A stretch of 64,000 nucleotides of DNA from Candidatus Oleimmundimicrobium sp. (GCF_030651595.1 NZ_JAUSCH010000084.1:1338-65337), one strand, 5' to 3'; shown: positions 8,305 to 62,772, numbered from the stretch's first letter. The notes: a model not told the origin generated them from the sequence alone. Numbers and translations are program-made.

Positions 8305-8331
8305 TTTCTCATTCTCCTTTCAAATTATTTT

Positions 8332-10901: not shown

Positions 10902-10910
10902 TTAAAACAC

Positions 10911-32227: not shown

Positions 32228-32960
32228 AGCATTAATAGTTGACGATGAAGCTCCAGCTCGCTCAGAACTTAGATATATGTTGCAGGAAACAAGCGATGTC
32301 GAAGTGGTTGGCGAAGCGGCAAATGCTGATGAGGCAATTAAACTTATAAAAGCCCTAAATTATGACGTAGTTTTTGTGGATATTCAGATGCAGGGATTAA
32401 CCGGTCTGCAATTGGCTGAAATTACTAAGGAGCTTTCATTACCACCGGCAGTTGTCTTTGTTACCGCTTATGGAGAATATGCGGTAAAAGCATTTGAGCT
32501 TAATGCTCTCGATTATTTGGTTAAACCATTTGAGGAAAAACGCCTTGTCCAAACTATAGAGAAAGTCTCTCGATATAAAGCAAGCCTCGAAGGACTCGAG
32601 CATAAAAAGAAAATCAAAAGCGGGAAGGCAGAATTAGATCTCTTGCCTGTGCAAGAGAATGATAAAACAATTTTGATTTCGATTGATAATATAGTTTATA
32701 TCCATGCCCAAAACGAGCGAATCTTTGTTCATGCGACAGGCGGTGTTTATTCTACTTCTTTTAATTTAAAAGAGTTGGAATCTCGTTTTTCAAACAGAGG
32801 ATTTTTTAGAACTCATCGAAGTTACCTTGTTAACATCTATAAAGCTAAAGAAATTATACCGATGTTTCATGGAAGTTTTATCTTGCGCCTTTCGGGAGAA
32901 ATTAAAGTTCCGGTTAGTCGAAGAAAAGCTTCGGAGTTAAAATCAATTTTAGGTATGTAA
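32217..32960 (+). CDS. LytTR-family response regulator
   Basis: Receiver domain (IVDDE, phospho-acceptor VDIQM) plus a LytTR DNA-binding domain. Confidence 0.85.
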   Translation: MKIKALIVDDEAPARSELRYMLQETSDVEVVGEAANADEAIKLIKALNYDVVFVDIQMQGLTGLQLAEITKELSLPPAVVFVTAYGEYAVKAFELNALDYLVKPFEEKRLVQTIEKVSRYKASLEGLEHKKKIKSGKAELDLLPVQENDKTILISIDNIVYIHAQNERIFVHATGGVYSTSFNLKELESRFSNRGFFRTHRSYLVNIYKAKEIIPMFHGSFILRLSGEIKVPVSRRKASELKSILGM

Positions 32961-33112: not shown

Positions 33113-34807
33113 GTGAAGACCGATTTGGAAATTGCACAAGAAGCAAAGCTTAGGCCAATCGAGGAAATTGCTAGAAGCCTTGGTTTAACAGAAGACGAAA
33201 TTGAACTATATGGTAAATACAAAGCTAAAACAGATCTGGGTGTTTTAAGCAGATTAAAAGATAAGCCCAACGGCAAATATATTGATGTTACCGCTATTAC
33301 GCCAACTCCACTGGGAGAAGGCAAGACAGTAACAACAATCGGGCTCTCCCTTGGATTAAATGCAATCGGCAAGAAAGTAATGACATGTATAAGGCAACCC
33401 TCTCTGGGCCCTGTCTTTGGCATCAAAGGCGGAGCAGCCGGTGGTGGCTATTCTCAAGTTTTGCCTATGGAAGATTTCAATTTGCATTTCACGGGCGATG
33501 TTCATGCTGTAAGTCTTGCGACAAATTTGCTAGCAGCCTTTATCGATAATCATATTCTTAAAGGGAACAAGCTAAATATCGATCCGCACACCATTAGTTG
33601 GAACAGAGTCGTTGATATAAGCGACAGAGCTTTACGCAATATAGTTATTGGATTGGGCGGTAAAGTTAACGGTATTCCAAGAGAGGCCGGTTTCGATATA
33701 TCCGTTGCCTCAGAAGCTATGGCAATCCTTGCTCTGGCTAGTGATTTAAAAGATTTGCGCGAGCGTCTTGGTCGAATAGTTTTTGCTTTTACTTATGATG
33801 GAAAACCAGTGACGGCTGAGGAGTTAAAGTGTGCCGGTGCAATGGCTGTTCTAATGAAAGATGCAATAAAACCAACCCTTATTCAAACGACAGAAAATAC
33901 TCCATGTCTTGTGCATGCCGGGCCTTTTGCCAACATTGCGCATGGCAATAACTCAATAATTGCTGATAAAATTGCTTTAAAACTGGCAGATTACGTGGTC
34001 ACGGAAAGCGGTTTCGGGGCTGATTGCGGAGCCGAAAAATTTATGGATATTAAGTGTCGGGTAAGTGGCTTAAAGCCAGACTGCGTGGTCGTTGTTGCCA
34101 CAGTTCGGGCACTGAAGATGCACAGTGGTAAATTTGAAGTTGTTGCCGGAAGGCCGCTTGATCCGGCTCTAACCAGAGAAGATTTGGATTCTCTCTCCAA
34201 GGGTATTGAGAATTTAGAAGCGCACATCGAGAGTTTGAAGAATTTTGGGGTGCCAATAGTCGTTGCTGTCAACAAATTTGCAACTGATACCGAGAAAGAA
34301 ATAAATTTTATACGCGAGCGAGCAATAGCTGCCGGAGCCGAGGACGCTATTAAAAGTGAAGTTTGGGCTAAAGGTGGAGAAGGTGGAAAAGAGCTTGCGG
34401 AAGCGGTTGCAAAAGCTTGTGAAAAGCCATCGAATTTTAAATTTCTTTATCCTGACGATGTCTCAATTAAAGAGAAAATTGAAACTATTGCAACTAAAAT
34501 ATATGGTGCGGCCGGAGTCGACTTTTCACCTATCGCAGAAAAGAAAATCAAATTATATGCTGAATATGGATGGGACAAGTTCCCAATTTGTATGGCTAAA
34601 ACACACCTTTCGCTATCTCATGATCCCATGTTAAAAGGAAGACCGCGCAACTTCCGGTTGCCAATTAGAGATATTCGCCCATCAGTTGGTGCCGGTTTCT
34701 TGTATCCGTTGTGTGGTGATATGAGGACAATGCCGGGACTTCCCTCTGTCCCTGCGGGAACAAAAATTGATATTGACGAAAATGGCAAGATAGTTGGTTT
34801 ATTTTAA
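33113..34807 (+). CDS. fhs: Formate--tetrahydrofolate ligase
   Basis: DLEIAQEAKLRPIEEIA, PTPLGEGKTVTTIGL. GTG start. Confidence 0.95.
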   Translation: MKTDLEIAQEAKLRPIEEIARSLGLTEDEIELYGKYKAKTDLGVLSRLKDKPNGKYIDVTAITPTPLGEGKTVTTIGLSLGLNAIGKKVMTCIRQPSLGPVFGIKGGAAGGGYSQVLPMEDFNLHFTGDVHAVSLATNLLAAFIDNHILKGNKLNIDPHTISWNRVVDISDRALRNIVIGLGGKVNGIPREAGFDISVASEAMAILALASDLKDLRERLGRIVFAFTYDGKPVTAEELKCAGAMAVLMKDAIKPTLIQTTENTPCLVHAGPFANIAHGNNSIIADKIALKLADYVVTESGFGADCGAEKFMDIKCRVSGLKPDCVVVVATVRALKMHSGKFEVVAGRPLDPALTREDLDSLSKGIENLEAHIESLKNFGVPIVVAVNKFATDTEKEINFIRERAIAAGAEDAIKSEVWAKGGEGGKELAEAVAKACEKPSNFKFLYPDDVSIKEKIETIATKIYGAAGVDFSPIAEKKIKLYAEYGWDKFPICMAKTHLSLSHDPMLKGRPRNFRLPIRDIRPSVGAGFLYPLCGDMRTMPGLPSVPAGTKIDIDENGKIVGLF

Positions 34808-38388: not shown

Positions 38389-38441
38389 AGCTGTAGAAAA
38401 ATTTAAAAAATTTAATTTTGAATTTTGAAAGGAGATATAAG

Positions 38442-39380
38442 ATGGTATTTCAAGCACCGGTAGATACGTATCAAGGGAAGGTTCGTGAAGTTACTGTGGG
38501 CAAGGAAGGCAGTCAGGTAGTGGTTGGTGGAGAGACCACGCTCCCATTTTATTTTTTTGAGGGAGAGATGCCAAGACGGCCGGTTATAGCCATGGAGATT
38601 TATGACGCGGCTCCAAATAATTGGCCAAGTGCTGTCGTTGAGCCATTTAAAGATGTATTAAATGACCCCATTGCTTGGGCCAAAAAGTGTCAGGATGAGT
38701 ATGGGGCGGATATGATTTGTTTACGACTTGTTAGCACTGACCCAAATGGTGAAAATCGAGATCCTGCAAATGCCGCAGAAACCGTTAAAGCTATCTTGGG
38801 AGCGATTTCCATTCCTTTATGTGTTTATGGAAGTGGTAATGCTGAGAAAGACGGAGAGGTTTTAAAGAAAGTTGCTGAGGTTGCTGAGGGGAACAGAGTA
38901 ATACTTGGTCCTTCACAAGAAGATAACTACAAATCGATAACGGCTGCGGCTATTGGTTATAAGCATAATGTTTCAGGACTTTCTCCAATAGATGTGAATA
39001 TGGCCAAGCAATTAAATATATTGATGACCCAACTAGGTTTAGACGCGGGCAGATTAGTGATGGACCCAAGCGGCGCGGCTTTGGGCTACGGGCTGGAGTA
39101 TGTCTACTCGATTACTGAGAGATTGAGACTTGCAGCTTTACAACAAAATGATGGAATGACCCAAATGCCGACATTATGTGATTTTGGCAGAGAAGTTTGG
39201 AAGGCCAAGGAAGCAAAAACGGAAGATGAGCCAAGCTGGGGAGACCCGGAAAAGAGAGGGATTCTCTGGGAGTTTATGACAGCAGCCAGTATGTTGATTG
39301 CCGGAGGAGACATCTTGATTATGAGGCACCCCGAAGCGGTTAAATTAACAAAGAAATTCATTGATGAATTGATGAGCTAA
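38442..39380 (+). CDS. acsD: Corrinoid iron-sulfur protein small subunit (CODH/ACS delta)
   Basis: TIM-barrel AcsD/CdhD family. ATG at 38442 has an AGGAG RBS; the 38418 ATG would place that RBS inside the ORF. Confidence 0.8.
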   Translation: MVFQAPVDTYQGKVREVTVGKEGSQVVVGGETTLPFYFFEGEMPRRPVIAMEIYDAAPNNWPSAVVEPFKDVLNDPIAWAKKCQDEYGADMICLRLVSTDPNGENRDPANAAETVKAILGAISIPLCVYGSGNAEKDGEVLKKVAEVAEGNRVILGPSQEDNYKSITAAAIGYKHNVSGLSPIDVNMAKQLNILMTQLGLDAGRLVMDPSGAALGYGLEYVYSITERLRLAALQQNDGMTQMPTLCDFGREVWKAKEAKTEDEPSWGDPEKRGILWEFMTAASMLIAGGDILIMRHPEAVKLTKKFIDELMS

Positions 39381-39393
39381 CTGGAGGAATATA

Positions 39394-39909
39394 ATGTCTA
39401 ATTGCGTTTGCGGGGCCAAAAAAGAAGAGAAAAAAATTCAAGTAAACGTAAATGACGTTCGTAAATTATTGAAAAAATATGAAGAGAAAAAGGGAGTGCT
39501 TGTGCATGCCCTTCAAGACGTTCAAAAAGAATTTGGTTTTTTGCCTGAGGAAGCGCTCAAAGTCATTGCTGAAGTAATGGACTTATCTTTGGCTCACGTT
39601 TATGGAGTTGCCTCGTTTTACGCGCATTTTTATTTTACTCCGCGAGGCAAAAATATAATTAAAGTTTGCACGGGCACGGCCTGTCATGTTCGCGGTTCGA
39701 AGGTGATTCTTGAGGGATTAGAAGAAGAACTTGGCATAAAAGCTGGCGAGACGACCGATGACTTTGAGTTCACGCTTGAAACAGTAAGTTGTGTGGGCTG
39801 TTGCGCGCTTGCTCCCGTTGTGGTGGTAAATGAAGAAGTTTCAAGAGAGAAAAATTCGAAGAAGATAATCGCAATTCTTAAAAATAAAAAGGAAGAGAAT
39901 GATGAGTAA
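39394..39909 (+). CDS. NuoE/HndA-like thioredoxin-fold [2Fe-2S] subunit
   Basis: CTGTACH...C cluster motifs. 24-kDa family. Confidence 0.85.
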   Translation: MSNCVCGAKKEEKKIQVNVNDVRKLLKKYEEKKGVLVHALQDVQKEFGFLPEEALKVIAEVMDLSLAHVYGVASFYAHFYFTPRGKNIIKVCTGTACHVRGSKVILEGLEEELGIKAGETTDDFEFTLETVSCVGCCALAPVVVVNEEVSREKNSKKIIAILKNKKEENDE

Positions 39910-41797
39910 GTTTAAAAGCTCTAAAGAGCTAAGTGTTTTGCGAAAAAAAATATGTGACGAAAGAGCAAAACAAAAAAAGACAATAGTTCGAGTTTGCAAC
40001 GGGACTGGTTGTCGTGCTTCTGGCGCGCAGAAGGTTGTTGAAGCTTTTAAAAAAGAGGCTACCAAGCAAGGCGTTGATTTTGAGATAAGGCCAACGGGCT
40101 GCCAGGGTTTATGTGAAAAAGGCCCTCTTGTAATTGTAGAGCCCTTAGATGTTTTTTATCAAAAGGTTGATCCGTTTGATGCGGCAAAGATAATTGATCT
40201 TACTATAAATCGCGGCAAAGTTATTGATCGGCTGCAAGTGGTTGATCCTGTTACGGGAGAGCTTGCTGTTAAAGAAGAGGAAATTTCCTTCTATGGCAAA
40301 CAGCAACGCGTAGTTTTAAGAAATTGTGGCCACATTGATCCCACTAACATAGAGGATTATATAGCAATTGGGGGCTATGAGGCGTTGGTGAAAATTTTAA
40401 ATGATATGACGCCGGAAGAAGTGATAGAAGAGGTTAAGAAATCTAATTTAAGAGGTCGAGGTGGGGCAGGTTTTCCTACGGGAAGAAAGTGGGAAGGCGG
40501 TCGAAGAACAAAGAGTGACGTGAAATATATTGTTTGCAATGGTGACGAAGGGGACCCGGGAGCCTTTATGGATAGAAGTGTTTTAGAGGGTGACCCCCAC
40601 TCTGTTATTGAAGGCATGATAATAGGGGCTTATGCTCTGGGCAATTGTAAAGAGGGATTTATATATGTAAGACAAGAATACCCTTTGGCGGTCGAGAACT
40701 TAACAGTGGCGATTAATCAAGCGAGGGAGCTTGGTCTTTTGGGCGAGAATATACTTGGGAGCGGTTTTGATTTTGATTTGGAAATAAAACGTGGAGCAGG
40801 AGCTTTTATTTGTGGAGAGTCGACAGCACTTATGTTTTCTATTGAGGGCAAAAGAGGGATGCCTCGAACTACTCCTCCTCGTTCTGTGGGAAAAGGACTA
40901 TGGGATAAGCCCACAGTGTTAAATAATGTTGAAACCTTCGCTAATATTCCTCCAATAATAATTAAGGGAGCAGACTGGTTTCCCTCTATAGGCACAAAGG
41001 GCTCTCCGGGAACCAAAATATTTGCTCTGACCGGAAAAGTGAAAAACACTGGTCTTATTGAGGTTCCTATGGGAATAACTATTCGGGAAATTGTCTATGA
41101 TATAGGTGGCGGTATTTTAGGCGACAAAGAGTTTAAAGCTGTTCAGACAGGAGGACCGAGTGGCGGTTGTCTTCCAAAAGAATATCTGGATTTACCCGTT
41201 GATTTTGATTCATTAACAGAAGTTGGAGCCATGATGGGCTCCGGCGGGCTTGTTGTGATGGATGAGTCCAATTGCATGGTGGAAATTGCAAGGTATTTTC
41301 TCTCTTTTACTCAGGTGGAATCTTGCGGGAAGTGCCCGCCTTGCAGAATTGGAACATATGAGATGCTTGAGATTTTAAACAGAATCGTTGAAGGGAAAGG
41401 CGAAGAGGGTGACATAGAGCGTTTGGAAAGCATCGGCAAACATATTCAGAAAACTGCTCTATGTGGTCTAGGTAAGAGCGCGCCCAATCCTGTGCTTTCA
41501 ACCATTAAATATTTTAGGGATGAGTATGAAGCCCACATAAGGGATAAATATTGTCCGGCTGGGCAATGTACAGCACTTGGCCATTATCAAATAAACGAGG
41601 AGGATTGTCTCCTTTGCGGTCTATGTAAAGAGGTGTGTGCTTATGACGCGATTACAGAAGAGCGAAACAGGTTCTATATCGATTTATCATACTGTCAAAA
41701 GTGCGGAGCTTGTATAGGGGTTTGTCCGACCGGTTGTGTTGTGAGACAGTTTGAACGAAAATCCACTCCTACTGGTAAGCAGGAGGTGGCTACATGA
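39899..41797 (+). CDS. NuoF/HndC-like NAD(P)H-binding FMN/Fe-S subunit with an N-terminal 2Fe-2S domain and two C-terminal 4Fe-4S domains
   Basis: GRGGAGFPTG; CGKCPPC N3 motif; C-terminal CLLCGLCKEVC and CQKCGACIGVC. Confidence 0.85.
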   Translation: MMSKFKSSKELSVLRKKICDERAKQKKTIVRVCNGTGCRASGAQKVVEAFKKEATKQGVDFEIRPTGCQGLCEKGPLVIVEPLDVFYQKVDPFDAAKIIDLTINRGKVIDRLQVVDPVTGELAVKEEEISFYGKQQRVVLRNCGHIDPTNIEDYIAIGGYEALVKILNDMTPEEVIEEVKKSNLRGRGGAGFPTGRKWEGGRRTKSDVKYIVCNGDEGDPGAFMDRSVLEGDPHSVIEGMIIGAYALGNCKEGFIYVRQEYPLAVENLTVAINQARELGLLGENILGSGFDFDLEIKRGAGAFICGESTALMFSIEGKRGMPRTTPPRSVGKGLWDKPTVLNNVETFANIPPIIIKGADWFPSIGTKGSPGTKIFALTGKVKNTGLIEVPMGITIREIVYDIGGGILGDKEFKAVQTGGPSGGCLPKEYLDLPVDFDSLTEVGAMMGSGGLVVMDESNCMVEIARYFLSFTQVESCGKCPPCRIGTYEMLEILNRIVEGKGEEGDIERLESIGKHIQKTALCGLGKSAPNPVLSTIKYFRDEYEAHIRDKYCPAGQCTALGHYQINEEDCLLCGLCKEVCAYDAITEERNRFYIDLSYCQKCGACIGVCPTGCVVRQFERKSTPTGKQEVAT

Positions 41798-42315
41798 GCA
41801 GTGATGGTTGCCCGGTCTTGATAGTACTTGAATTTCTAAAGGGATTTGCCCGAGATAAGATGTGTGGCAAGTGTCTGCCCTGCATGTTTGGAACAGCGCA
41901 GATGGTCGATGTTTTAGAGAGGATTACAAATGGAAAAGGAGAAGAAGAAGATATGGCTCTGCTTGATGAAATATCTTCTTCTATCGTGGATACTGCTCGA
42001 TGCAAACTGGGTAAGGACGCGGCTACTTTTGTAAAGGACTCATTGTCCGCATCTAAAAGTGAGTATGAAGAGCATATAAAGGACAAGTATTGCGCTCATA
42101 AATCTTGTGAGATTATTGTGAACTACCAGATAAACCCAGAGAAGTGTACGATGTGTGGAGCTTGCAAAGAGGTTTGCTCCAAAGATGCAATCATCGGTGA
42201 GAAGATGGTTTCTTATCTTTCGGACAACAAACCTTATTATATTAAAAATAAAAAGTGCACCAAATGTGACGAGTGTTTGGCCGTATGTGAAGCCGGTGCT
42301 ATAGAAATTGTTTAA
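41794..42315 (+). CDS. Small Fe-S protein paralogous to the C-terminal third of the preceding NuoF-like subunit (N3-like CGKCLPC plus two 4Fe-4S ferredoxin motifs)
   Basis: Colinear similarity to NuoF-like residues about 460-630: CGKCLPCMFGT vs CGKCPPCRIGT; EYEEHIKDKYC vs EYEAHIRDKYC. Confidence 0.6.
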   Translation: MSSDGCPVLIVLEFLKGFARDKMCGKCLPCMFGTAQMVDVLERITNGKGEEEDMALLDEISSSIVDTARCKLGKDAATFVKDSLSASKSEYEEHIKDKYCAHKSCEIIVNYQINPEKCTMCGACKEVCSKDAIIGEKMVSYLSDNKPYYIKNKKCTKCDECLAVCEAGAIEIV

Positions 42316-42332
42316 CTAAAGGAGGAGAAAAA

Positions 42333-44882
42333 TTGAGTGAGCAAGTCACTGTAACGATAAATGGAAAAGAAGTAAAGGTTCCCGAAGGAGTTTTCATCAT
42401 TCAGGCGGCCAAGATGGCGGGGATAGATATACCCCATCTCTGTTATTGTGAATGCCTGCCCAGCACGGGGTCGTGCAGAGTTTGTTTGGTTGAAGTTGAG
42501 GGGATAAAGGGGTTGGTTGCCTCATGTGCTCGAAAAGTTAAGGATGGAATGGTGATTGCCACTGATACAGAAAAGATCCGGGAAGCCAGACGTTTTGTTC
42601 TTGAATTAATACTTTCAAATCATCCCGGCGATTGCATGAGTTGCGATAAAAACGGTGCTTGTGAGCTTCAGAAATACGCATACGAGCTTGGCATTGAGAA
42701 AACAAGTTTCTTGATGAAAGATCCCGGTTACGAGATAGATAAAAGCAATCCTTTTATAGAGAGGAATTACAATCTCTGTATTTTGTGCGGACGGTGTGTG
42801 GGAATCTGCAAAACGCAGGGGGCAGATATCATAGATTTTATAAAGCGAGGCATGATTACCAAGGTGGCAACCCCGTTGGATAAGCCCTTGCAGGAATCGG
42901 GCTGTGATTTTTGTGGAAGCTGTCTCGCGGTTTGTCCTGTTGGCGCGTTACTCGAGGTCGACAGGCGTTTTCGTGGGCGAGAATGGGAAATGAAAGAGAC
43001 AAGAACAGTCTGCTCTTATTGTGGCTGTGGTTGTGACCTTGTATTTGGCATCGTGGATGGGCAGATTATGAGAGCAACCGGCGAGGGCCTGGGAGATTTT
43101 CTCTGCGCGAGAGGCAGATTTGGATGGGATTTTGTAGAAAGCCCTAAGCGAATTACAAAACCTTTGATTAAAAAAGACGGGGTTTTAACCGAAAGCACCT
43201 ACGAAGAGGCCTTTGGGTTTGTAGCAGAACGTCTTCTTGATATAAAGAAAGCCCATGGGGCAGATAGCGTTGGCGGCTTTATCGGCGCGGGGAACACAAA
43301 CGAGGTTGCTTACTTATTCCAAAAGTTTTTAAGGGCCGGTATCGGGACGAACAACATCGATAGCTCCGCCAGACTTCTCGGTTTCCCCGCCTTAGTTGAT
43401 TTATATGAAGCGTTGGGAGACGGAGCTGTTGTCTCAATGAAAGATGTTGAGGAAGCCGATGCTCTCTTGCTCGTAAACGCGGATGTTACGGTGGCCTATC
43501 CTCGTGTGGGTGTAGCCGTAAAGAGAGCGCTTTCAAGCGGAGCGAAGTTGGTAACCATAGATGCCAGAAGAACGAAAATTTCCGAGAAAGCCGATATATA
43601 TATTCAGTCAAAGGTCGGCTCCGACGAGTTTGTCTTAAGTGGGCTTTTGAAAGAGTTACTTGACGGTAAAATTTACGATGAAGAATTCGCCAAGAAGTGC
43701 GAGAAATTTGAAGACTTAAAGAAATCTCTTGGCAAATTGAAGATGGAAACGGTAGAAAGAGAGTCGGGAATTTCTAAAGATGTTTTGAAGGAAGCCGCAA
43801 AACTTTATAGCGAAGGGAAGAAGGCGGTCATAATCTTTGGGGCCGAAACGGCAAGCCCTCAAACCATGGAATTGATTGCCGATATCTCACTTCTAACAGG
43901 TAGAACTAGAGCGAGCGTTCTCCCGTGCCTCCTCTCTTCTAATCTGCGAGGCACGGTTTACATGGGAGCTTTGGCCGAATTTTATCCGGGTGTAAGAAAA
44001 ATAGATGAAGCCAGGAACGATTTTGAGAAGACTTGGGGAGTTAAACTTCCTAAAAAGGCCGGGCTTTCTATTAAGGAAATGTTAGACGGAATGGGCTCAT
44101 CTATTCTTGGGATGTATATAGTTGGAGCGGATCCGGTTACTCAATTTCCTAACTCTTCCAGTGTGGCCAAGTCGCTCTCATCCTTAGACTTCCTGGTGGT
44201 CCAAGATACTTTTTTGACGGAAACCGCAAAGTTGGCCGATGTTGTGTTGCCAGGGATAACTTTAGCCGAGAGCAATGGAACCATTGTTAATATGGAATAT
44301 CGAACGAAAGAGGTTAGGGCAGTTATTGAACCTTTGGCCGAAACTGATTGGAAGACGGTAACCGCTTTGTCTAAAAGAATGAATTATACTATGGGCTACT
44401 CTTCTGAAAAGGAGATTGCCAAAGAAATAAAGTCTCTGGTTTTCGTTCCAAAGAAAATCGAAAGAGATACATATAGCTTTATCTTAGTGGAACCCAAGGT
44501 TTCTGGTGAAGAGCCCGATAAAAAATATCCTTATACTTTAATTGTTGGAGAAACAACATTTGGGTTTTATGATGGAGTTAGAACAAAAATTTCCAAACTA
44601 TCTGAACTTGAGCCAAATATGGGAGATTATGTTATTTTTAACTCAGACGATGCTGCGTTTTTGGGGCTTGAGGATGGTTGCAAGGTCACGGTTAAATCGA
44701 GACGGGGCAAGGTTACAACCTCGGCAAGGATACTTGATTTCTTACCCAAGGGGATGTTTTTTATGCCTAGTTGTCACCATAAACAAGGCGTTCTAGCGAG
44801 CGATAGCATAGATTTAAAATTAAAGAGCCCGCAAGATCAGTTAATTGCTGTAAGTGTTTCAAAAGAAGGAGTCGCCAAATGA
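42333..44882 (+). CDS. NuoG/FdhA-like Fe-S and molybdopterin-fold subunit lacking the catalytic Sec/Cys-His (non-catalytic formate dehydrogenase paralog)
   Basis: 2Fe-2S, His-ligated 4Fe-4S (HPGDCMSCDKNGAC), two 4Fe-4S and CSYCGCGC clusters. NNIDSSARLLGF replaces [11 protein letters not shown] of the true FdhA at 62773. Confidence 0.75.
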   Translation: MSEQVTVTINGKEVKVPEGVFIIQAAKMAGIDIPHLCYCECLPSTGSCRVCLVEVEGIKGLVASCARKVKDGMVIATDTEKIREARRFVLELILSNHPGDCMSCDKNGACELQKYAYELGIEKTSFLMKDPGYEIDKSNPFIERNYNLCILCGRCVGICKTQGADIIDFIKRGMITKVATPLDKPLQESGCDFCGSCLAVCPVGALLEVDRRFRGREWEMKETRTVCSYCGCGCDLVFGIVDGQIMRATGEGLGDFLCARGRFGWDFVESPKRITKPLIKKDGVLTESTYEEAFGFVAERLLDIKKAHGADSVGGFIGAGNTNEVAYLFQKFLRAGIGTNNIDSSARLLGFPALVDLYEALGDGAVVSMKDVEEADALLLVNADVTVAYPRVGVAVKRALSSGAKLVTIDARRTKISEKADIYIQSKVGSDEFVLSGLLKELLDGKIYDEEFAKKCEKFEDLKKSLGKLKMETVERESGISKDVLKEAAKLYSEGKKAVIIFGAETASPQTMELIADISLLTGRTRASVLPCLLSSNLRGTVYMGALAEFYPGVRKIDEARNDFEKTWGVKLPKKAGLSIKEMLDGMGSSILGMYIVGADPVTQFPNSSSVAKSLSSLDFLVVQDTFLTETAKLADVVLPGITLAESNGTIVNMEYRTKEVRAVIEPLAETDWKTVTALSKRMNYTMGYSSEKEIAKEIKSLVFVPKKIERDTYSFILVEPKVSGEEPDKKYPYTLIVGETTFGFYDGVRTKISKLSELEPNMGDYVIFNSDDAAFLGLEDGCKVTVKSRRGKVTTSARILDFLPKGMFFMPSCHHKQGVLASDSIDLKLKSPQDQLIAVSVSKEGVAK

Positions 44883-46840
44883 AAAAGCAAAGCAAAAACG
44901 AAGAAAGCAAGTTTTACCCTGCGGCAAGCACGCAAACCAGCTGCACGGCAAGCGCCAAAATGATAGATAAAGCTAAAAAGGACGGAGTAGAGACCGCTTT
45001 TGAAAGGGTTGCTTCTCTTAAGTCATGTTCATTTGGGGCGGGTGGGACGTGTTGCAGAATATGCTCAATGGGCCCTTGTAGAGTGACCGAGACGAGAACC
45101 GGAGTTTGTGGGGCCACCGCTTCTACGGTTGCGGCCAGAAATTTTGCTCGAATGATAGCCGCCGGCGCGGCCGCGCACTCAGATCATGCCAGAGAGGTTA
45201 TTTTCACTTTTATTGCTGCGGCGAAGGGTGAAGCGCCCGGTTATGAGATAAAAAATGAGACGAAGTTGCATGCTTTGGCTAAAATTTTTGATATCAATAT
45301 AGAGGGTAAGGATAAAAACCGGATAGCTTTGGAGTTGGGCGAGAAAGCTCTTGCTGAGATGGGGAAACAGCAAGGTGAGATAACTCTTGTAAAGCAGGCT
45401 CCGAAGAAAAGGCAGGAGCGTTGGAGAAAAGAAGGCATATCTCCTCGCGGGGTGGACCGCGAGATAGTGGAAACAATGCATCGAACTCACATGGGGGTCG
45501 ATCAAGATTATAAAAACATCTTGCTTCATGGTTGCCGAACTTCTTTGGCCGATGGTTGGGGTGGCTCTATGATAGCAACAGAATTACAGGATGTCCTCTT
45601 TGGCACCCCTGTTCCAGTCAGGTCAAAGGTAAATTTAGGAGTCCTTAAAGAGAATCAAGTTAACGTAATAATTCACGGTCATGAGCCGTTGCTTTCTGAG
45701 ATGATTGTCACGGCGGCAAGGGACCCTGAGCTGATTGAGGAGGCCAAAAAGGCGGGCGCTAAGGGCATAAATATTGCCGGCATATGTTGTACGGCAAATG
45801 AGCTTTTGATGCGCAAAGGTGTTCCGGTAGCCGGTAACTTTCTCCAACAAGAGCTGGCTATCTGTACCGGCGCAGTCGATGCCATGGTTGTTGATGTTCA
45901 ATGTATCATGCAGTCGTTACCCACCGTGGCTAAATGTTATCACACTGAGGTAATTACTACTTCGGCGAAGGGAAAAATTTTGGGTGCCACCCATATGGAA
46001 TTTGATCATCACAAAGCGCCGGAGGTAGCAAAAGATATCGTCAGGCGGGCAATTAAAAATTATCCCAAGAGAGGCAAGGTTGATATTCCCAAGGAAGAGA
46101 TCGAGCTCATTGCGGGTTTTTCTCACGAGACCATAAAGTATTTGCTTGGCGGGCGGTTCCGCGCCTCTTATGGTCCGTTAAACGATAATATAATCAACGG
46201 CAGGATAAAAGGGGTTGTGGGTGTCGTGGGATGCAACAACCCTCGGGTTAAACACGATTATGTACATACCACGGTGGTTAAAGAGCTCATCGCAAACAAC
46301 GTGCTCGTTCTGGTTACCGGGTGCGCCGCGATAAGCTGCGCGAAAGAAGGACTGCTCATTCCCGAAGCCGCTGAGCTTGCGGGCGCCGGTTTGCGGGAGG
46401 TTTGCGAGGCAGTAGGTATTCCTCCCGTGCTTCATTGCGGTTCATGCGTGGACAACAGCCGAATTCTCATGGCCGCTTCGGAAATAGTTAAAGAGGGCGG
46501 TCTCGGCGAAGACTTAGATGAAATTCCGGCCGCGGGTTGCGCCCCCGAGTGGATGAGTGAGAAAGCCGTAGCCATCGGCCAGTATTTTGTTTCAAGTGGA
46601 GTTCCGGTTGGTTTTGGTGTTTCTTTTCCGACGACCAATAGCGAGGTGTTATCCAATTATCTTTTTAAAGAGATTGAGGAGACAACGGGCGGCAAGTGGT
46701 TTTACGAGCCCGATCCCGTTGAGATGGCTAAGATATTAATTAAAAATATAGATAAAAAGAGAAAAGCTTTGGGGATAGATCGTGAGAAAGAGAGGGTGCT
46801 TTACGATATGGAAATGAGGAGGGATCTGGAAATTGTCTAA
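44879..46840 (+). CDS. acsA: Carbon monoxide dehydrogenase catalytic subunit (C-cluster)
   Basis: CSFGAGGTCCRICSMGPCRV N-terminal cluster motifs. CooS/AcsA family. Confidence 0.9.
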   Translation: MKKQSKNEESKFYPAASTQTSCTASAKMIDKAKKDGVETAFERVASLKSCSFGAGGTCCRICSMGPCRVTETRTGVCGATASTVAARNFARMIAAGAAAHSDHAREVIFTFIAAAKGEAPGYEIKNETKLHALAKIFDINIEGKDKNRIALELGEKALAEMGKQQGEITLVKQAPKKRQERWRKEGISPRGVDREIVETMHRTHMGVDQDYKNILLHGCRTSLADGWGGSMIATELQDVLFGTPVPVRSKVNLGVLKENQVNVIIHGHEPLLSEMIVTAARDPELIEEAKKAGAKGINIAGICCTANELLMRKGVPVAGNFLQQELAICTGAVDAMVVDVQCIMQSLPTVAKCYHTEVITTSAKGKILGATHMEFDHHKAPEVAKDIVRRAIKNYPKRGKVDIPKEEIELIAGFSHETIKYLLGGRFRASYGPLNDNIINGRIKGVVGVVGCNNPRVKHDYVHTTVVKELIANNVLVLVTGCAAISCAKEGLLIPEAAELAGAGLREVCEAVGIPPVLHCGSCVDNSRILMAASEIVKEGGLGEDLDEIPAAGCAPEWMSEKAVAIGQYFVSSGVPVGFGVSFPTTNSEVLSNYLFKEIEETTGGKWFYEPDPVEMAKILIKNIDKKRKALGIDREKERVLYDMEMRRDLEIV

Positions 46841-49034
46841 GATTATCGCTTCGGCTGCCATAAGGGGCGCCCACAAGATAGCCAAGAGGGCGGAAGAAAA
46901 TCTTAAGGGAGCTTTAGAGAAATATGGACCCGACAAAAAGGTGGAGTTTCCAAACACGGGGTATTATCTGCCCGTGATTTATGGAATTACCGGGATGGCG
47001 GTTTCCACCCTTGGAGACATGGAGAAGGTTTTGGCATATTCCAAAAGCTTGCTTCCGCCTGTTCCGTCAGAGAAAGTCTGGCTACCGTATCTGGCTCCCG
47101 CTTTGGATGCGGGAATGGCGACACTTTTTATGGATGAAATTATTGAGGCAATTAAGTATGTGGAGTCTCCTCCTTATACTGTGTCATCTAAACCAACGGA
47201 TAGCAATCTTTGGTTGGGTGCGGCCGATGATGTGATAATGAGAGAAAGAGGAGTTGAATTTGTTGATGGTTCAGCACCGGGTTTTGCCGCGTGTGTTGGA
47301 GCAGCACCTACAAATGAAATAGCGGTAAAAATAGCACGAGAACTTCAAGAAAAAAATATCTATGTCTTTATGTCAGCTTCAACTGATGGAAAAAACATGG
47401 CTGAGCAACTTAAAGAAGAAGGCGTTCAGATGGGATGGGAAACCCGTCTGGTTCCCTTTGGTAAAGATGTTACCGCGACCGTCTTTTCCGCGGGGTTTGC
47501 AACTCGCGCCGCGCTTTCTTTTGGCGGAGTTAAACCCGGAGATTTTAGGAAAGTGTTACTCTACAACAAAAATAGGATTTTTGCCTTTGTTCTGGCTTTA
47601 GGAGAGGTCGATGATGAAAAATATGCTCAAGCGGTGGGAGCTGTAAATTTTGGTTTTCCAACTATTGCTGATACTAATATTCCTCAAATTCTCCCAACAG
47701 GAGTTTGTACTTACGAGCATGTTGTGTCAAATGTTCCCCACGATAAATTAGTAGAAAGAGCAATTGAAGTAAGAGGGCTTAAGGTTCAGGTTACCAAGAT
47801 TGATATTCCCGTTTCTTTTGGCTCTGCTTTTGAGGGAGAAAGAATTAGAGGGGAAGATACCTACGTAGAATTTGGTGGAACAAAGACACGTGCCTTTGAA
47901 TTCTTGAGGATGAAAGAGATGGATGAGGTGGAAAATGGCAAAATCGAGGTAGTTGGCAAAGATATAGACGAAATCAAGGAGGGCGAACGGCTTCCTCTTA
48001 GTATAGTAATAGATGTTGCTGGTAGAAAAATGCAGGAAGATTTCGAATCAGTTTTAGAAAGACAAGTTCACCATATGATTAATGGTGCTGAAGGTATATT
48101 TCATATGGGGCAGCGCGATATCATCTGGGTAAGGGTTAGTAAGAAAGCTAAAAATGTTGGCTTTAAATTTCATCATTTTGGGAAGATACTTATCGCGAAG
48201 CTTGCCGCGGATTACCCCGCAATTGTGGATAAGGCTCAAGTTACAATCTACACCGATCTTGAAAAGGTTGACCAGATGTTGGAGGAAGCTCGAAAAGCAT
48301 ACCATCACAGGGATGAAAGGGTGCGGGGGATGACCGATGAGAGCGTTGATACTTTTTATTCCTGTACCTTATGTCAGAGTTTTGCTCCAAACCACGTCTG
48401 CATAATTACTCCCGAGAGATTAGGGCTTTGTGGGGCGTATAACTGGCTTGATGGCAAGGCAGCCTATGAGATTAATCCGACGGGGCCTAACCAGCCGGTT
48501 AAAAAAGGTGAAACGATAGATGCAGTTAAAGGTCAATGGAAAAATGTCAATGAGTTTGTCTTTACGAAATCTAATCAGTCTCTTGAGCATTTCAACGCCT
48601 ATTCTATGATGGAGGATCCAATGACTTCGTGTGGTTGTTTCGAGTGCGTGGTGGCGGTTCTCCCAACGACTAACGGGATCATGATAGTAAATAGGGAGTT
48701 TCCCGGAATGACGCCCTGCGGAATGAAATTTTCAACCTTAGCTGGGACCGTAGGTGGTGGTGTCCAGCTTCCCGGGTTTATCGGGATAGGCCGTCAATAT
48801 ATAATGAGCAAGAAATTTATTTCTGCCGATGGGGGTTTAAAGAGGATTGTCTGGATGCCTAAGGAGTTGAAGGATACTCTTCGTTCGGAATTTCAAAAAC
48901 GTGCAGAAGAAGAAGGTGACCCTAATTTCATCGATAAGATTGCCGATGAAACAGTGGGAACTACTGAGGAAGAAGTTCTGGCGCATATGCAGAAAGTTGG
49001 ACATCCGGCCTTAGAGATGTCCCCAATGTTCTAA
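46833..49034 (+). CDS. acsB: Acetyl-CoA synthase (A-cluster) subunit
   Basis: 733 aa. A-cluster CGC in MTSCGCFECVV. Confidence 0.9.
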   Translation: MSKIIASAAIRGAHKIAKRAEENLKGALEKYGPDKKVEFPNTGYYLPVIYGITGMAVSTLGDMEKVLAYSKSLLPPVPSEKVWLPYLAPALDAGMATLFMDEIIEAIKYVESPPYTVSSKPTDSNLWLGAADDVIMRERGVEFVDGSAPGFAACVGAAPTNEIAVKIARELQEKNIYVFMSASTDGKNMAEQLKEEGVQMGWETRLVPFGKDVTATVFSAGFATRAALSFGGVKPGDFRKVLLYNKNRIFAFVLALGEVDDEKYAQAVGAVNFGFPTIADTNIPQILPTGVCTYEHVVSNVPHDKLVERAIEVRGLKVQVTKIDIPVSFGSAFEGERIRGEDTYVEFGGTKTRAFEFLRMKEMDEVENGKIEVVGKDIDEIKEGERLPLSIVIDVAGRKMQEDFESVLERQVHHMINGAEGIFHMGQRDIIWVRVSKKAKNVGFKFHHFGKILIAKLAADYPAIVDKAQVTIYTDLEKVDQMLEEARKAYHHRDERVRGMTDESVDTFYSCTLCQSFAPNHVCIITPERLGLCGAYNWLDGKAAYEINPTGPNQPVKKGETIDAVKGQWKNVNEFVFTKSNQSLEHFNAYSMMEDPMTSCGCFECVVAVLPTTNGIMIVNREFPGMTPCGMKFSTLAGTVGGGVQLPGFIGIGRQYIMSKKFISADGGLKRIVWMPKELKDTLRSEFQKRAEEEGDPNFIDKIADETVGTTEEEVLAHMQKVGHPALEMSPMF

Positions 49035-50502: not shown

Positions 50503-51570
50503 ATGGGCGATATGAGCTTAAAAGATGTGGCCATTATTGGTGGAGGTGTTGCCGGCATAAGTGCGTCCTTGGTCTTAGCCGATATTGGTTTTGCGGTTCA
50601 CATAATTGAAAGGGACGTTCAACTGGGTGGGCATGCGGTAAATTTTGCCTGTAAAGCTACGGATAAATGCAGTAAGTGTCTGGTCTGTTTAGCTGACGAG
50701 CTTGTCCTAAAAGCATTTCAACATCCTAAAATAAAAGTTTTAACTGGCTCTGAGGTGACGTCTTTTTCGGGCAAATCTGGGAATTTTGAGCTGCAAATTT
50801 CTCAAGCTATCGGAGAAGAGTCGCTTTTTAAAGAACTGATATTAAAAGTTGGAGCCGTTGTTATTGCCACGGGTTTTATGCCTTTTAATGCGGAAGAGAA
50901 AAAGGAATACGGGTATGGCAAATATAAAAATGTAATTACTGCTCTGGAACTTGAGAAAGACTTGCGTCTAACCGGAAAAGTTTTGAGGCCCACCGATGGA
51001 GCAATCCCAAAGAAAATTGCTTTTTTCCAGTGCGTCGGGAGCAGAGATGAGAGTATAGGCCGGGGCTATTGTTCTAAAGTGTGTTGTCCGTATGCGCTTA
51101 GACTTTCAAAGCTCATTAAATCGGAAATTCCTGAATCGGATGTTACGATTTTTTATATGGATGTTCAACCAGCGGGCAAATGTTTTAATAAATTTCGCCA
51201 GGAGTGCGAGGAGCTTGGGATACATTTTGTGAGAAATCTGCCCTCAAAAGTTTACGGTTATGTTGATTCGGATTTTCTGCGGGTTAAAAGCTTAAGTGGT
51301 GATAAGGGCGAGGTTGTTCAAAATGAATTTGATCTCGTAGTTTTGTCTGTTGGGATGTCTCCCCAGAGCGATGCAAGGTTTTTGGCCGATACTTTTGGGG
51401 TCAGTCTCGATAGATACGGATTTTTTGAGGGACAGGGATTTCGGGTTAACCTTTCGAATGTTCCCGGAATTTTTCTTGCCGGAGCGTGTCAGGGACCGAA
51501 AGACATCGAAGAGTCAATAGTTCACGGAAAAGCAGCAGCAGTAGAAGTTGCCAGGATGTTGAGGGTGTAA
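50503..51570 (+). CDS. hdrA: HdrA-like FAD-dependent oxidoreductase (N-terminal module)
   Basis: AIIGGGVAGISASL FAD fingerprint. Cys-rich CKATDKCSKCLVC. HdrA-like. Confidence 0.65.
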   Translation: MGDMSLKDVAIIGGGVAGISASLVLADIGFAVHIIERDVQLGGHAVNFACKATDKCSKCLVCLADELVLKAFQHPKIKVLTGSEVTSFSGKSGNFELQISQAIGEESLFKELILKVGAVVIATGFMPFNAEEKKEYGYGKYKNVITALELEKDLRLTGKVLRPTDGAIPKKIAFFQCVGSRDESIGRGYCSKVCCPYALRLSKLIKSEIPESDVTIFYMDVQPAGKCFNKFRQECEELGIHFVRNLPSKVYGYVDSDFLRVKSLSGDKGEVVQNEFDLVVLSVGMSPQSDARFLADTFGVSLDRYGFFEGQGFRVNLSNVPGIFLAGACQGPKDIEESIVHGKAAAVEVARMLRV

Positions 51571-53195
51571 TGGAAAAGGAAGTTTCCAAAATAGGCATAT
51601 TTATTTATGACTGTGAAAGTAAGCTTAAGAACATTTTAAGCACCGATGAAGCATGCTCAAAACTTGAGGGTTTAGGATTTGTTTGTTTTAAAAGTCTTAC
51701 TCCGCGTTTTACCGAAGTAATGTGTGATTTTGAAAAATATTTAAAGGATAACGAGGTTTCTAAGATAGTAGTTGCCGGTTGCAACCCTCGCCCCAAAAAA
51801 CAAATTTTTAAAAACTCTTTAAAAAAAATGGGCCTGAATCCTTATTTGGTGAACTTTGTCAATCTTAATGAAGTAATTGGTTATAAAGAGAAAAAGAGAG
51901 CCACAGAAAAAGCCGTTAATTTAGTAGTTCGGGCAGCGAAATGGATTAAGATGCAGGAACCTATTGGGACTCAAAAAGTTTTGTTAAATCAAAAAGTTCT
52001 TGTTCTCGGAAGTGGAATTGCCGGGATTGAAACAGCTCTTATTTTAGCCGAAGGGGGTTTGGACACGATTTTAATAGAAGAAACCTCTCATCTCGGTGGG
52101 GGAGCGGTTGCGATTGAAAACCTAAAAAGTCTTGTCGAGAGCAAAATCGAGGCGCTAACTAACGAAAAAAAAGTAAGGATTATTAATTCCTCATATTTAG
52201 TTGATTTGAATGGCCACGCAGGAAAATTTATTGCAAGAGTTGATGGTAAGCAAAAATTGACGGTTGAAGTTGGAGCAATTGTTGTCGCAACTGGGTATAA
52301 ACCGATTTTGCCTGTTCAAGAGCTTGGTGAAAATCCTGACTCTTTGATTATCGGGCAGAAAGATATGGGGAATAGATTGTCCTTAGGTAAAAATATACCT
52401 CAGCGTGTCTGTTTTTTAATCGATTTAGTCGATGAAGATTTAAAGATATCGACTCAGGCTCTTTTGAAGCAAGCTTTAACTGTTAAAGAAAAGTTTGGTT
52501 CTGACGTAATTTGTTTTTGCAGAGATTTAAAAGTTTCGTTTGATGGTGGGGAGGAGTTGTATAAGAAAGCTCGGGAAGCCGGCGTATTGTTTTTTAAGTA
52601 TGCTGAAAAACCAGAAATTAAGCTTTCATACAACACTGTTGAAGTTCATTTAATAAACGAAGATTACCCTTACGAAAAATTGATTTTTGAAAGCGATTTA
52701 TTAGTTGTGGGCGAGAAGGCAGTACCTGGTAAAAAATTTGAAGAGTTAGCTAAATTGCTCTCGGTTAATCTTGATTCAAAGGGATTCTTTCAAGAGGAAA
52801 ACGTGAAACTGTTGCCTACATTTTCCTCTAAGCGTGGGGTATTTTTTGTCGGTGGATGTCGTTTTCCACAAAATATAGAAGAGACGTTTTCCGAAGCAAG
52901 GGGCACGGCGGGAGAGGTTCTCTCGTTTCTATCAAAAGGAGAAATTGAACTGGATTTAACATCCGCGAAAATAAATCCGGATAAGTGTGTTCTTTGTCTT
53001 ACTTGTATTAGAACTTGCCCTCATGGAGCGATAGTTGTTGATTATGAAGAAGAAACGGCAAAAGTGATTCCGCTGGCCTGCCAATCGTGTGGGATATGCG
53101 CGAGTGAATGTCCCGTTATGGCCATAGAGCTTCCTCTTTATACCAATGCTCAAATTATCGGGCAGTTAAGTGATGTGGTAGGTGAAGCGGGTTGA
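51570..53195 (+). CDS. hdrA: Second HdrA-like FAD oxidoreductase with an MvhD-like N-terminal region and C-terminal 2x[4Fe-4S] ferredoxin
   Basis: VLVLGSGIAGIETAL; C-terminal CVLCLTCIRTCP and CQSCGICASECP. Start chosen at ATG 51570 (MEKEVSK); the ORF track extends upstream to 51486. Confidence 0.65.
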   Translation: MEKEVSKIGIFIYDCESKLKNILSTDEACSKLEGLGFVCFKSLTPRFTEVMCDFEKYLKDNEVSKIVVAGCNPRPKKQIFKNSLKKMGLNPYLVNFVNLNEVIGYKEKKRATEKAVNLVVRAAKWIKMQEPIGTQKVLLNQKVLVLGSGIAGIETALILAEGGLDTILIEETSHLGGGAVAIENLKSLVESKIEALTNEKKVRIINSSYLVDLNGHAGKFIARVDGKQKLTVEVGAIVVATGYKPILPVQELGENPDSLIIGQKDMGNRLSLGKNIPQRVCFLIDLVDEDLKISTQALLKQALTVKEKFGSDVICFCRDLKVSFDGGEELYKKAREAGVLFFKYAEKPEIKLSYNTVEVHLINEDYPYEKLIFESDLLVVGEKAVPGKKFEELAKLLSVNLDSKGFFQEENVKLLPTFSSKRGVFFVGGCRFPQNIEETFSEARGTAGEVLSFLSKGEIELDLTSAKINPDKCVLCLTCIRTCPHGAIVVDYEEETAKVIPLACQSCGICASECPVMAIELPLYTNAQIIGQLSDVVGEAG

Positions 53196-59194: not shown

Positions 59195-59710
59195 ATGGCA
59201 TGTCAGTGTAAGTGCGGGAAGTCGAGTGGTGAAAAACTCAATCTCTCTGAAATTTCTGATATTATTGAAAGATATAAAGATTATCCCGGGGCAACTATCC
59301 CGTTACTTCAAGAGATTCAGAAAAGGTTCGGTTATCTTTCTGAAGATGTTTTAGACTATGTTTCTGAGGCCACGGGGATTCAGTTGAGTCAGCTTTACGG
59401 CGTAGCCACTTTCTACCCGCAGTTTTCTCTTATTCCGGTGGGGAAGAACGTGATTTCAGTATGTCAAGGGACAGCTTGTCACGTGAGCGGGGCGAAGAAA
59501 ATAACAGAAGCATTGGCCGATGAATTGGGTATTGAAGAAGGCGAGACCACTCATGATCGGCAGTTTACTTTGAGATCAGTTGCCTGTTTGGGAGCTTGTA
59601 GTCTTGCTCCCGTTATGAGAATGAATGATGAAACCTACGGACGGCTAACGCCCAAAATGGTTCGAGAAATAATACGCAACATAAAAACTAAAAATAAGTC
59701 GATTAATTAA
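59195..59710 (+). CDS. NuoE/HndA-like [2Fe-2S] subunit (second copy)
   Basis: CQGTACHVSG...C motifs. Confidence 0.85.
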   Translation: MACQCKCGKSSGEKLNLSEISDIIERYKDYPGATIPLLQEIQKRFGYLSEDVLDYVSEATGIQLSQLYGVATFYPQFSLIPVGKNVISVCQGTACHVSGAKKITEALADELGIEEGETTHDRQFTLRSVACLGACSLAPVMRMNDETYGRLTPKMVREIIRNIKTKNKSIN

Positions 59711-59725
59711 AAACAGGAGGTTTAG

Positions 59726-62311: not shown

Positions 62312-62332
62312 GCTTTTTGAAAGGAGTTTCCC

Positions 62333-62761: not shown

Positions 62762-62772
62762 ACGGAGGAAGT

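Follow-up and report, generated by a model that had tools for sequence, protein, structure and literature searches.

The window analysed here, 64,000 nucleotides of one strand from Candidatus Oleimmundimicrobium sp. (GCF_030651595.1 NZ_JAUSCH010000084.1:1338-65337), is crossed by a long Wood-Ljungdahl operon on the + strand. The genus belongs to the Actinomycetota, class Ca. Aquicultoria. Inside the operon lies a module of four genes (39394-44882) that leads directly into acsA, the gene for the nickel carbon monoxide dehydrogenase (CODH) subunit of CODH/acetyl-CoA synthase (ACS). The four genes code for a NuoE-like protein (BfuC), a NuoF-like flavoprotein (BfuB), a small iron-sulfur (Fe-S) protein that repeats the C-terminal part of BfuB (B') and a relative of the formate dehydrogenase (Fdh) alpha subunit FdhA in which the active site is lost (BfuA). 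This module is conserved beside CODH in at least four phyla. It is probably a redox partner dedicated to CODH or to CODH/ACS as a whole. We also lean, less firmly, to the fuller reading that it is a flavin and iron-sulfur partner of the Bfu (HydABC-like) family, devoted to the CODH of CODH/ACS and bifurcating electrons; for true bifurcation taken by itself the chances appear about even. The genes of the module, the two altered loops of BfuA and the genes that follow are these:

39394-39909, + strand: BfuC, NuoE-like [2Fe-2S] subunit, 171 aa (PF01257 2Fe-2S_thioredx, 2e-50)
39899-41797, + strand: BfuB, HydB-type NuoF-like flavoprotein, 632 aa (Pfam domains and motifs)
41794-42315, + strand: B', free-standing paralogue of the BfuB C-terminus, 173 aa (NADH_4Fe-4S and 2 x Fer4)
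42333-44882, + strand: BfuA, catalytically dead FdhA-like Fe-S subunit, 849 aa (Pfam, alignments and AlphaFold2)
43365-43385, + strand: remnant of the active-site loop in BfuA, S345-A-R-L-L349-G350-F, aligned to C-A-R-[LV]-[Cys/Sec]-His
43923-43940, + strand: remnant of the catalytic Arg loop in BfuA, PCLLSS for PLRGQN (alignments)
44879-46840, + strand: acsA, Ni-CODH subunit of CODH/ACS (Pfam Prismane, 1.7e-178)
46833-49034, + strand: acsB, acetyl-CoA synthase subunit (Pfam CODH_A_N + CdhC + ACS_CODH_B_C)

The four open reading frames (ORFs) lie exactly where an earlier note on this DNA had placed them, co-directional with acsA and acsB. The three overlaps that it had described are also there, 11 nt between BfuC and BfuB, 4 nt (ATGA) between BfuB and the 173-aa B', and 4 nt (ATGA) between BfuA and acsA. 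In addition, acsA and acsB overlap by 8 nt, and the junction between B' and BfuA is a 17-nt gap followed by the TTG start of BfuA. A ribosome-binding site of the GGAGG type was found 5' of each start codon at these junctions. A scan of the + strand for promoters and terminators inside this block gave nothing beyond shuffle expectation and no convincing terminators. The acsA product scores 663 bits to TIGR01702 (cut-off 478) and 700 bits to the PDB chain 6t7j_B.

BfuA is 100% identical to a protein from a metagenome-assembled genome (MAG) listed at NCBI as 'molybdopterin-dependent oxidoreductase [Candidatus Oleimmundimicrobium sp.]'. Its Pfam domains are Fer2_4, NADH-G_4Fe-4S_3, a Fer4 dicluster (Fer4_Nqo3), Molybdop_Fe4S4, Molybdopterin and Molydop_binding. 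All its Fe-S ligands, 19 cysteines and His97 in five cluster motifs, are present (C37/C48/C51/C65; H97/C101/C104/C110; C149/152/155/159; C191/194/197/201; C227/230/234/258); the last of these is the cluster of the Molybdop_Fe4S4 domain, next to the pterin site, and it is conserved. The catalytic residues are gone. In the alignment to FdsA of R. capsulatus (6tg9_A; phmmer, 4e-118) the sequence T-C-A-R-V-Cys-His stands opposite S-S-A-R-L-Leu349-Gly350, and P-L-Arg-G-Q-N opposite P-C-Leu-L-S-S, with a Leu in the place of the catalytic Arg. The register comes from three independent alignments: phmmer against 6tg9_A, MAFFT of 121 sequences (the best 120 database relatives plus the intact selenocysteine (Sec) FdhA of the window itself) and tblastn pairs. 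All three bear out the difference that the earlier note had seen between SARLLGF in BfuA and CARL-U-H in the FdhA of the same window (TGA at 63829), and no Cys or Sec appeared at the catalytic position after re-alignment. A hidden Cys is thus excluded, and the BfuA frame has no internal stop or in-frame TGA, therefore a recoded Sec is excluded as well.

The AlphaFold2 model of BfuA (predicted local distance difference test score, pLDDT, 91.3; predicted template modelling score, pTM, 0.90) matches FdsA-type formate dehydrogenases best, with template modelling (TM) scores of 0.86-0.87 (6tg9_A 0.86, 7vw6_A 0.87). It also matches NuoG at 0.65-0.73 and HydA of the NiFe-Bfu hydrogenase at 0.55. Thus the claim that the subunit keeps the Fe-S motifs together with the FdhA fold stands, while the likeness to complex-I NuoG that went with it stands as regards role but not as regards ancestry, the fold being closer to FdsA. 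The N-terminal [2Fe-2S], the His-ligated [4Fe-4S] and the 2x[4Fe-4S] sites of the NuoG type are present in BfuA, with H97 and the cysteines invariant. No genes of the nuoA-N type were found among the window ORFs scanned (those at ~18.8-26.6 kb left out), and the neighbours of BfuA are Wood-Ljungdahl genes. In the curated models BfuA falls below both cut-offs, with 455 bits against 666.25 for the Fdh alpha subunit (TIGR01591, to which the intact relative P0035 scores 928.8) and 363 against 470 for NuoG (TIGR01973). Judged by its sequence, BfuA clearly derives from the alpha subunit of a NAD-type formate dehydrogenase.

Many other proteins share this condition. When the best 120 relatives were classed as dead or intact by alignment column they split cleanly into about 50 dead proteins (750-890 aa), without Cys/Sec-His and Arg, and about 70 (roughly 880-925 aa) that keep DHCARL-C-H and PLRGQNN, and the dead set forms a single split from intact FdhA in the neighbour-joining (NJ) tree (bootstrap 60/60). 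In the dead clade 19/19 of the Fe-S cysteines are 100% conserved, and pairwise identity in the N-terminal Fe-S region is 0.64, vs 0.58 in intact FdhA. The clade retains 0.90 of the FdhA-invariant columns (at least 95% conserved in intact FdhA) in the N-terminal Fe-S region and 0.86 in the [4Fe-4S] domain, with 0.51 in the molybdopterin domain and 0.38 in the C-terminal domain. The former Sec/Cys column holds L, Y, T, H, S, A, F or D, the His column G or S and the catalytic Arg column L/S/P/A/I, with Arg in no member. On these alignments the pattern is that expected of a protein selected as Fe-S carrier and scaffold. With the ligand lost and retention in the pterin-binding regions at 51% and 38%, BfuA would be unable to bind Mo. 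An alternative Mo ligand in BfuA (Ser or Asp) was rejected, as the column is not conserved. A pseudogene or one-off decay product was rejected too: the ORF is intact, the proteins form a separate clade and the Fe-S ligands are strictly conserved across phyla, and therefore decay is ruled out.

The Fdh-like subunit might have remained an enzyme that uses a non-canonical ligand for its metal, or that takes a new substrate where the pterin once sat. In favour of this, the fold is fully kept in a model of high confidence, and a number of positions in what used to be the catalytic domains do not vary in the dead clade (e.g. D343, P390, G429, N537, G540). We consider it very improbable, given that the Mo ligand, the His and the Arg are replaced variably, with no alternative ligand fixed, and that the protein fails the curated Fdh-alpha cut-off. 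Furthermore, the Lys through which [4Fe-4S] cluster and pterin are connected in FdhH has mostly become Arg in the dead clade, and five cysteine columns conserved at 93% or more in intact FdhA have been lost. BfuA as an Fe-S scaffold fits these observations better.

The gene order points to CODH as the partner of this scaffold. A scan of one genome per species gave 80 loci, further loci were added by exact protein look-up and the window proteins were mapped onto them; counts of downstream CODH are limited to genes followed by 1.5 kb of sequence or more. A CODH gene lies directly downstream in 20/22 of the dead-type genes and in 0/59 of the intact FdhA genes (Fisher p = 5e-17, a value from a 20/2/0/59 table that overstates independence, the loci being related by descent). 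The order BfuC-BfuB-B'-dead BfuA-CODH was found in all dead-clade loci but one, usually with acsB and acsC next, and B' measures roughly 170-200 aa in the related loci. The carriers are Ammonifex thiophilus, Desulfothermobacter acidiphilus and several MAGs among the Bacillota, a Desulfotomaculum MAG, MAGs of the Actinomycetota (Ca. Subteraquimicrobium among them) and one MAG each from the Desulfonatronaceae and the Chloroflexota, and one module locus (L088) groups with proteins annotated as Bipolaricaulota. The order of the neighbouring Wood-Ljungdahl genes varies between phyla and the five-gene core is constant. Furthermore, the BfuB proteins of the module form a clade of their own (100/100), apart from the BfuB of intact-FdhA loci. 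Two dead-type loci lack CODH, L083, which has a different, Stn-like dead domain, and L084.

The module could also have nothing to do with CODH, being either a decaying paralogue of Fdh-Bfu or a BfuABC core for a catalytic subunit encoded elsewhere, with its proximity to acsA a consequence of the clustering of Wood-Ljungdahl genes. Candidates for such a catalytic subunit would be the Sec-FdhA (as in G. acidurici, with the pterin site on an extra subunit) or HdrA/MetFV. Actually, HdrA-, HdrBC- and MetFV-like genes are found in the same window, and so is a true Fdh-Bfu set, the last gene of which runs off the window end:

59195-64000, + strand: intact Fdh-Bfu set (BfuC2, acsE, BfuB2, small CBS-domain ORF, Sec-FdhA)
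59195-59710, + strand: BfuC2, second NuoE-like gene, part of the intact Fdh-Bfu set
59726-60505, + strand: acsE, inserted between BfuC2 and BfuB2 (an odd layout)
60506-62311, + strand: BfuB2, second NuoF-like gene, part of the intact Fdh-Bfu set
about 62333-62750, + strand: small CBS-domain ORF between BfuB2 and Sec-FdhA
62773 to the window end, + strand: Sec-FdhA, intact (CARL-TGA-H, TGA at 63829)

There is also a precedent in the Type 3 Fdh-Bfu, in which a pterin-less BfuA with clusters A1-A5 works beside a separate Fdh subunit (PMC9304861), and in one locus, L084, the module has no adjacent CODH. However, the Sec-FdhA of the window carries N-terminal Fe-S domains of its own and has its own BfuC/BfuB pair, and BfuB2 shares 56% identity with the BfuB of the module (BfuB1), which falls in the separate clade. 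In the 20/22 the CODH gene is immediately 3', often with overlapping stop and start, in a setting where the rest of the Wood-Ljungdahl order varies, and the strict conservation of the Fe-S ligands across phyla also speaks against decay. A module without relation to CODH is for us unlikely, and a partner dedicated to CODH(/ACS) agrees better with the gene order.

The case for bifurcation comes from the two core subunits. The Bfu family was defined by Schut et al. 2022 (Front Microbiol 13:946711) by the clusters that separate bifurcating enzymes from their NuoF, FdsB and HoxF homologues (PMC9304861). BfuC (NCBIfam NuoE NF005722, 156 bits, cut-off 141) has the [2Fe-2S] ligand motifs C92-x4-C97 and C133-x2-C136 of cluster C1 in that family. 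BfuB has an N-terminal 2Fe-2S_thioredx domain, Complex1_51K (FMN), SLBB, NADH_4Fe-4S and 2 x Fer4, and every ligand motif that the definition gives for FMN and B1-B5 is present: C33/C38/C68/C72, GRGGAGFPTG at 186, C476xxC479xxC482...C522, H546-x6-C552-x4-C557 and CxxCxxCxxxC at 570 and at 599. By these motifs BfuC and BfuB clearly appear to hold the complete cofactor set of a bifurcating core; besides FMN, BfuB has the N-terminal [2Fe-2S], a [4Fe-4S] beside the flavin, the His/Cys site (B2) and a 2x[4Fe-4S] at the C-terminus. BfuB aligns over its full length to the bifurcating HydB of T. kivui (8a6t_B, 804 bits) and to the NiFe-HydB of A. mobile (7t2r_B, 803 bits), vs only about 350-390 bits to the non-bifurcating FdsB and NuoF.

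The 173-aa B' consists of the [4Fe-4S] four-helix domain, the His/Cys site and the 2x[4Fe-4S] ferredoxin domain. Over its whole length it matches the final stretch of about 160 residues in a BfuB, namely 469-627 in HydB 8a6t_B and 425-583 in 9bov_B. All its ligands are kept (C6; C24xxC27xxC30...C70; H94...C100...C105; two CxxCxxCxxxC) and they are conserved across 17 related loci. B' was found in every CODH-linked module and at none of the intact-FdhA loci with complete upstream sequence, and a free-standing B' beside a complete BfuB was seen in this module only. Matches to the 173-aa protein 5' of intact FdhA in three loci are consistent with the C-terminal end of BfuB, which is cut by the contig start in L032 and L035 and only partially matched in L037. 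Two distant homologues, in L083 (Stn-like context) and L085 ([FeFe]-hydrogenase context), were rejected as extra subunits and are the 3' halves of split BfuB genes.

Taken together, the synteny, the 803-804 bits of BfuB and its motifs support the reading of the earlier note, a NAD(P)H-linked and possibly bifurcating module that would serve CODH/ACS rather than formate. That note had also pointed to conservation of the gene order in other Wood-Ljungdahl organisms, and to separation of the gene from acsA in relatives, as the things to look for; the order recurs in Actinomycetota, Bacillota, Chloroflexota and the Desulfonatronaceae MAG, and CODH adjoins the dead-type gene in all but two of the loci counted.

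The same gene context would fit a simpler enzyme, a non-bifurcating NAD(P)H:CODH oxidoreductase in which electrons pass only between NAD(P)(H) and the C-cluster, for instance to make NADH from CO oxidation, with ferredoxin not obligatory. FdsABG and Hox contain NuoEF and are non-bifurcating (PMC9304861). CO (-520 mV) can reduce NAD+ directly, and Schut et al. themselves find the need for bifurcation unclear with substrates of such low potential (PMC9304861). Nevertheless these homologues lack B2-B5 (PMC9304861), and the BfuB of the module has the N-terminal [2Fe-2S], the His/Cys and the C-terminal 2x[4Fe-4S] sites, besides scoring far higher with HydB than with FdsB/NuoF. NADH alone is also a poor reductant of CO2 to CO in autotrophs that run the pathway reductively. 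We hold the non-bifurcating enzyme to be rather unlikely and continue with the bifurcating partner of CODH.

In such an enzyme the five proteins, with or without AcsB, would form one complex. The dead Fdh domain would act as scaffold and wire, comparable to the NuoG of complex I and the HydA of the NiFe-Bfu hydrogenase, and to judge by synteny BfuA would pass electrons from CODH into the core. B' might be a connector of the ferredoxin/CooF kind or a second ferredoxin arm, leading from the clusters of BfuA to the D/B clusters of the CODH dimer, although this is a guess. The BfuBC core would tie the CO2/[CO] couple of the C-cluster to both NAD+/NADH and ferredoxin at once. When the complex runs reductively, NADH and reduced ferredoxin would drive CO2 to CO, channelled to ACS, and NADH would supply half of the electrons; in the oxidative direction the oxidation of CO or of the acetyl-CoA carbonyl would reduce NAD+ and ferredoxin (bifurcation). 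The E0' of CO2/CO is -520 mV (Table 1, PMC9304861). Channelled CO at very low steady-state concentration can raise the effective CO2/CO potential towards the 'mid-potential' range of roughly -400 mV in which H2, formate and the like serve other Bfu enzymes as third substrates, so the coupling seems thermodynamically reasonable.

Several points weigh against this picture. L084 (299-5904) is a genuine BfuC-BfuB-B'-dead BfuA module followed by unrelated genes and without adjacent CODH; its BfuB has 779 aa with a fused CBS domain, its B' 200 aa, and its dead BfuA is truncated at 673 aa. In L088 (1-5912; dead BfuA of 750 aa) the CODH gene has no acsB after it, and therefore the partner may be the CODH subunit and not the whole CODH/ACS. 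The loci are phylogenetically non-independent and mostly come from MAGs, the trees are NJ trees, in which fast-evolving sequences can cluster artefactually, and co-localisation could reflect co-regulation only. Both the link to CODH and bifurcation are drawn from comparative genomics, and the dead domain might still bind a pterin cofactor. The 'B2' [2Fe-2S] assignment made in the paper that defined the family may be read differently in other structural work on HydABC, and therefore the argument from a full set of cofactors rests on the conservation of motifs and not on a settled mechanism.

The nearest proposal in the literature is the predicted Codh-Bfu, known from 4 sequences of Firmicutes only and uncharacterised, in which bifurcation would allow the use of very low CO (PMC9304861). 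Like the module, it joins in one cluster a Ni-CODH and a BfuC/BfuB core with the full cofactor set, and CO/CO2 is proposed as the third substrate. Its Codh genes lie between BfuB and BfuA, the BfuA is of Type 2, without A3 and A5, and the accompanying poly-[4Fe-4S] subunits are CooF-like (PMC9304861), whereas in the module the genes run BfuC-BfuB-B'-BfuA-AcsA-AcsB, the dead FdhA that stands as BfuA is full-length and has five cluster motifs, Molybdop_Fe4S4 included, and B', a paralogue of the BfuB C-terminus, takes the place of CooF. Moreover, the CODH here is the ACS-associated AcsA of a Wood-Ljungdahl operon, found in several phyla and in our case in an Actinomycetota MAG, and the module BfuB has its own clade, unlike the BfuB of locus L022, which is nearer to the Fdh-linked ones. 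This locus (5503-12145, - strand of the locus), from a Peptococcaceae MAG, is an example of the Codh-Bfu predicted in 2022; it contains a CooA-like regulator, CooF, CooS, BfuC, BfuB and a 284-aa BfuA, and adjoins an intact Cys-FdhA on the opposite strand.

With FdsABG of R. capsulatus (6tg9) and the Fdh-Bfu of the window the module shares the NuoE-like and NuoF-like subunits and an FdhA whose N-terminal Fe-S domains are of the NuoG kind, but its BfuA is about 50 residues shorter and without the catalytic Sec/Cys, His and Arg, it has B', and CODH is the next gene, as in no intact FdhA of the 59. NuoG/Nqo3, HydA of the A. mobile NiFe-HydABCSL (7t2r/7t30) and StnA/NfnA (8oh5_C, 9bov_A) are, like BfuA, Fe-S scaffolds derived from molybdopterin oxidoreductases and devoid of an active site, and they join a NADH/FMN module to another catalytic unit. 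In sequence and fold BfuA is much closer to a real FdhA than to NuoG or HydA, and where those scaffolds serve a membrane arm, a NiFe hydrogenase or a domain of the GltD type, the partner is here a CODH gene. The solved BfuA precedents from bifurcating enzymes among the sequence or fold matches were 7t2r_A, 8oh5_C, 9bov_A and 9n5u_A. QrcB ('molybdopterin-binding-like' in NCBIfam) is another dead scaffold of the molybdopterin type. A full-text literature search, whose coverage is incomplete so that a prior mention elsewhere is possible, found no description of this arrangement, only passing mentions of nuoEF near CODH/ACS (NPL-UPA2 MAG) besides the differing Codh-Bfu prediction. A Bfu-type module linked to ACS, in which the Fdh subunit is a fossil and the BfuB arm is duplicated, is not categorically new. 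The boldest form of the proposal, to which we give somewhat less than an even chance, is that CODH/ACS is itself electron-bifurcating (confurcating) through a Bfu core wired via the fossil Fdh and the duplicated BfuB arm, and that this enzyme is ancient, cross-phylum and of single origin by recruitment of an Fdh-Bfu.

If a conserved Bfu module did tie CODH/ACS to NADH as well, the bookkeeping of ATP and ferredoxin would change for a set of organisms, among them Ammonifex, sulfate-reducing Bacillota, Chloroflexota and Actinomycetota of the subsurface. In the Wood-Ljungdahl pathway the carbonyl branch would be driven by NADH together with ferredoxin and not by ferredoxin alone, a solution for autotrophy near the thermodynamic limit. 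It would also be a fresh case in which a catalytic subunit (FdhA) came to serve as electron-transfer scaffold and, among the Bfu enzymes, the first whose BfuB Fe-S arm is duplicated. The two cultured carriers, Ammonifex thiophilus and Desulfothermobacter acidiphilus, make the idea directly testable. Members of the dead clade are annotated as 'formate dehydrogenase alpha subunit' (Joint Genome Institute, JGI) or 'molybdopterin-dependent oxidoreductase' (NCBI), and therefore metabolic reconstructions may wrongly credit their carriers with an extra formate dehydrogenase.

The rest of the operon around the module is as follows (RACo, cooC and folD and the genes 3' of acsB are listed in operon order; CFeSP, corrinoid iron-sulfur protein):

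33113-34807, + strand: fhs, 5' part of the Wood-Ljungdahl operon
after fhs, + strand: RACo, cooC, folD
38418-39380, + strand: gene for the small CFeSP subunit, directly before the four-gene module
3' of acsB, + strand: acsC, HdrA-like genes, metV, metF, hdrC/B-like genes, second cooC

The HdrA-like flavoprotein 3' of acsC is encoded in two + strand ORFs in different frames (50503-51570 and 51486-53195) that overlap by 85 nt. Its counterpart in Ammonifex thiophilus is one ORF of 994 aa, and the split could be genuine or come from a frameshift or a sequencing error. A 353-aa ORF (56873-57934, + strand) that separates the hdrB-like gene from the second cooC has no Pfam match at E <= 1e-5, as is also the case for a 638-aa ORF on the - strand (10911-12827). 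Also on the - strand, cobN (cobaltochelatase, 4384-8304), which sits amid cobalt/ABC transporter and chelatase genes, is split into ORFs of 786 aa and 519 aa by a TAA with an ATG directly after it at ~5944. The in-frame stop at 5944 was considered as a possible Sec codon of an FdhA and rejected, this being the split cobN and the stop a TAA. A gene some 4 kb upstream of this operon (27275-29053, + strand) codes for a 592-aa protein that joins 2x[4Fe-4S], the large-subunit domain of [FeFe]-hydrogenases (PF02906) and an FeS domain to a GGDEF diguanylate cyclase at its C-terminus. This protein looks like a hydrogenase-derived sensor tied to cyclic di-GMP signalling, and a His_kinase/LytTR two-component pair is encoded downstream of it (30902-32960).

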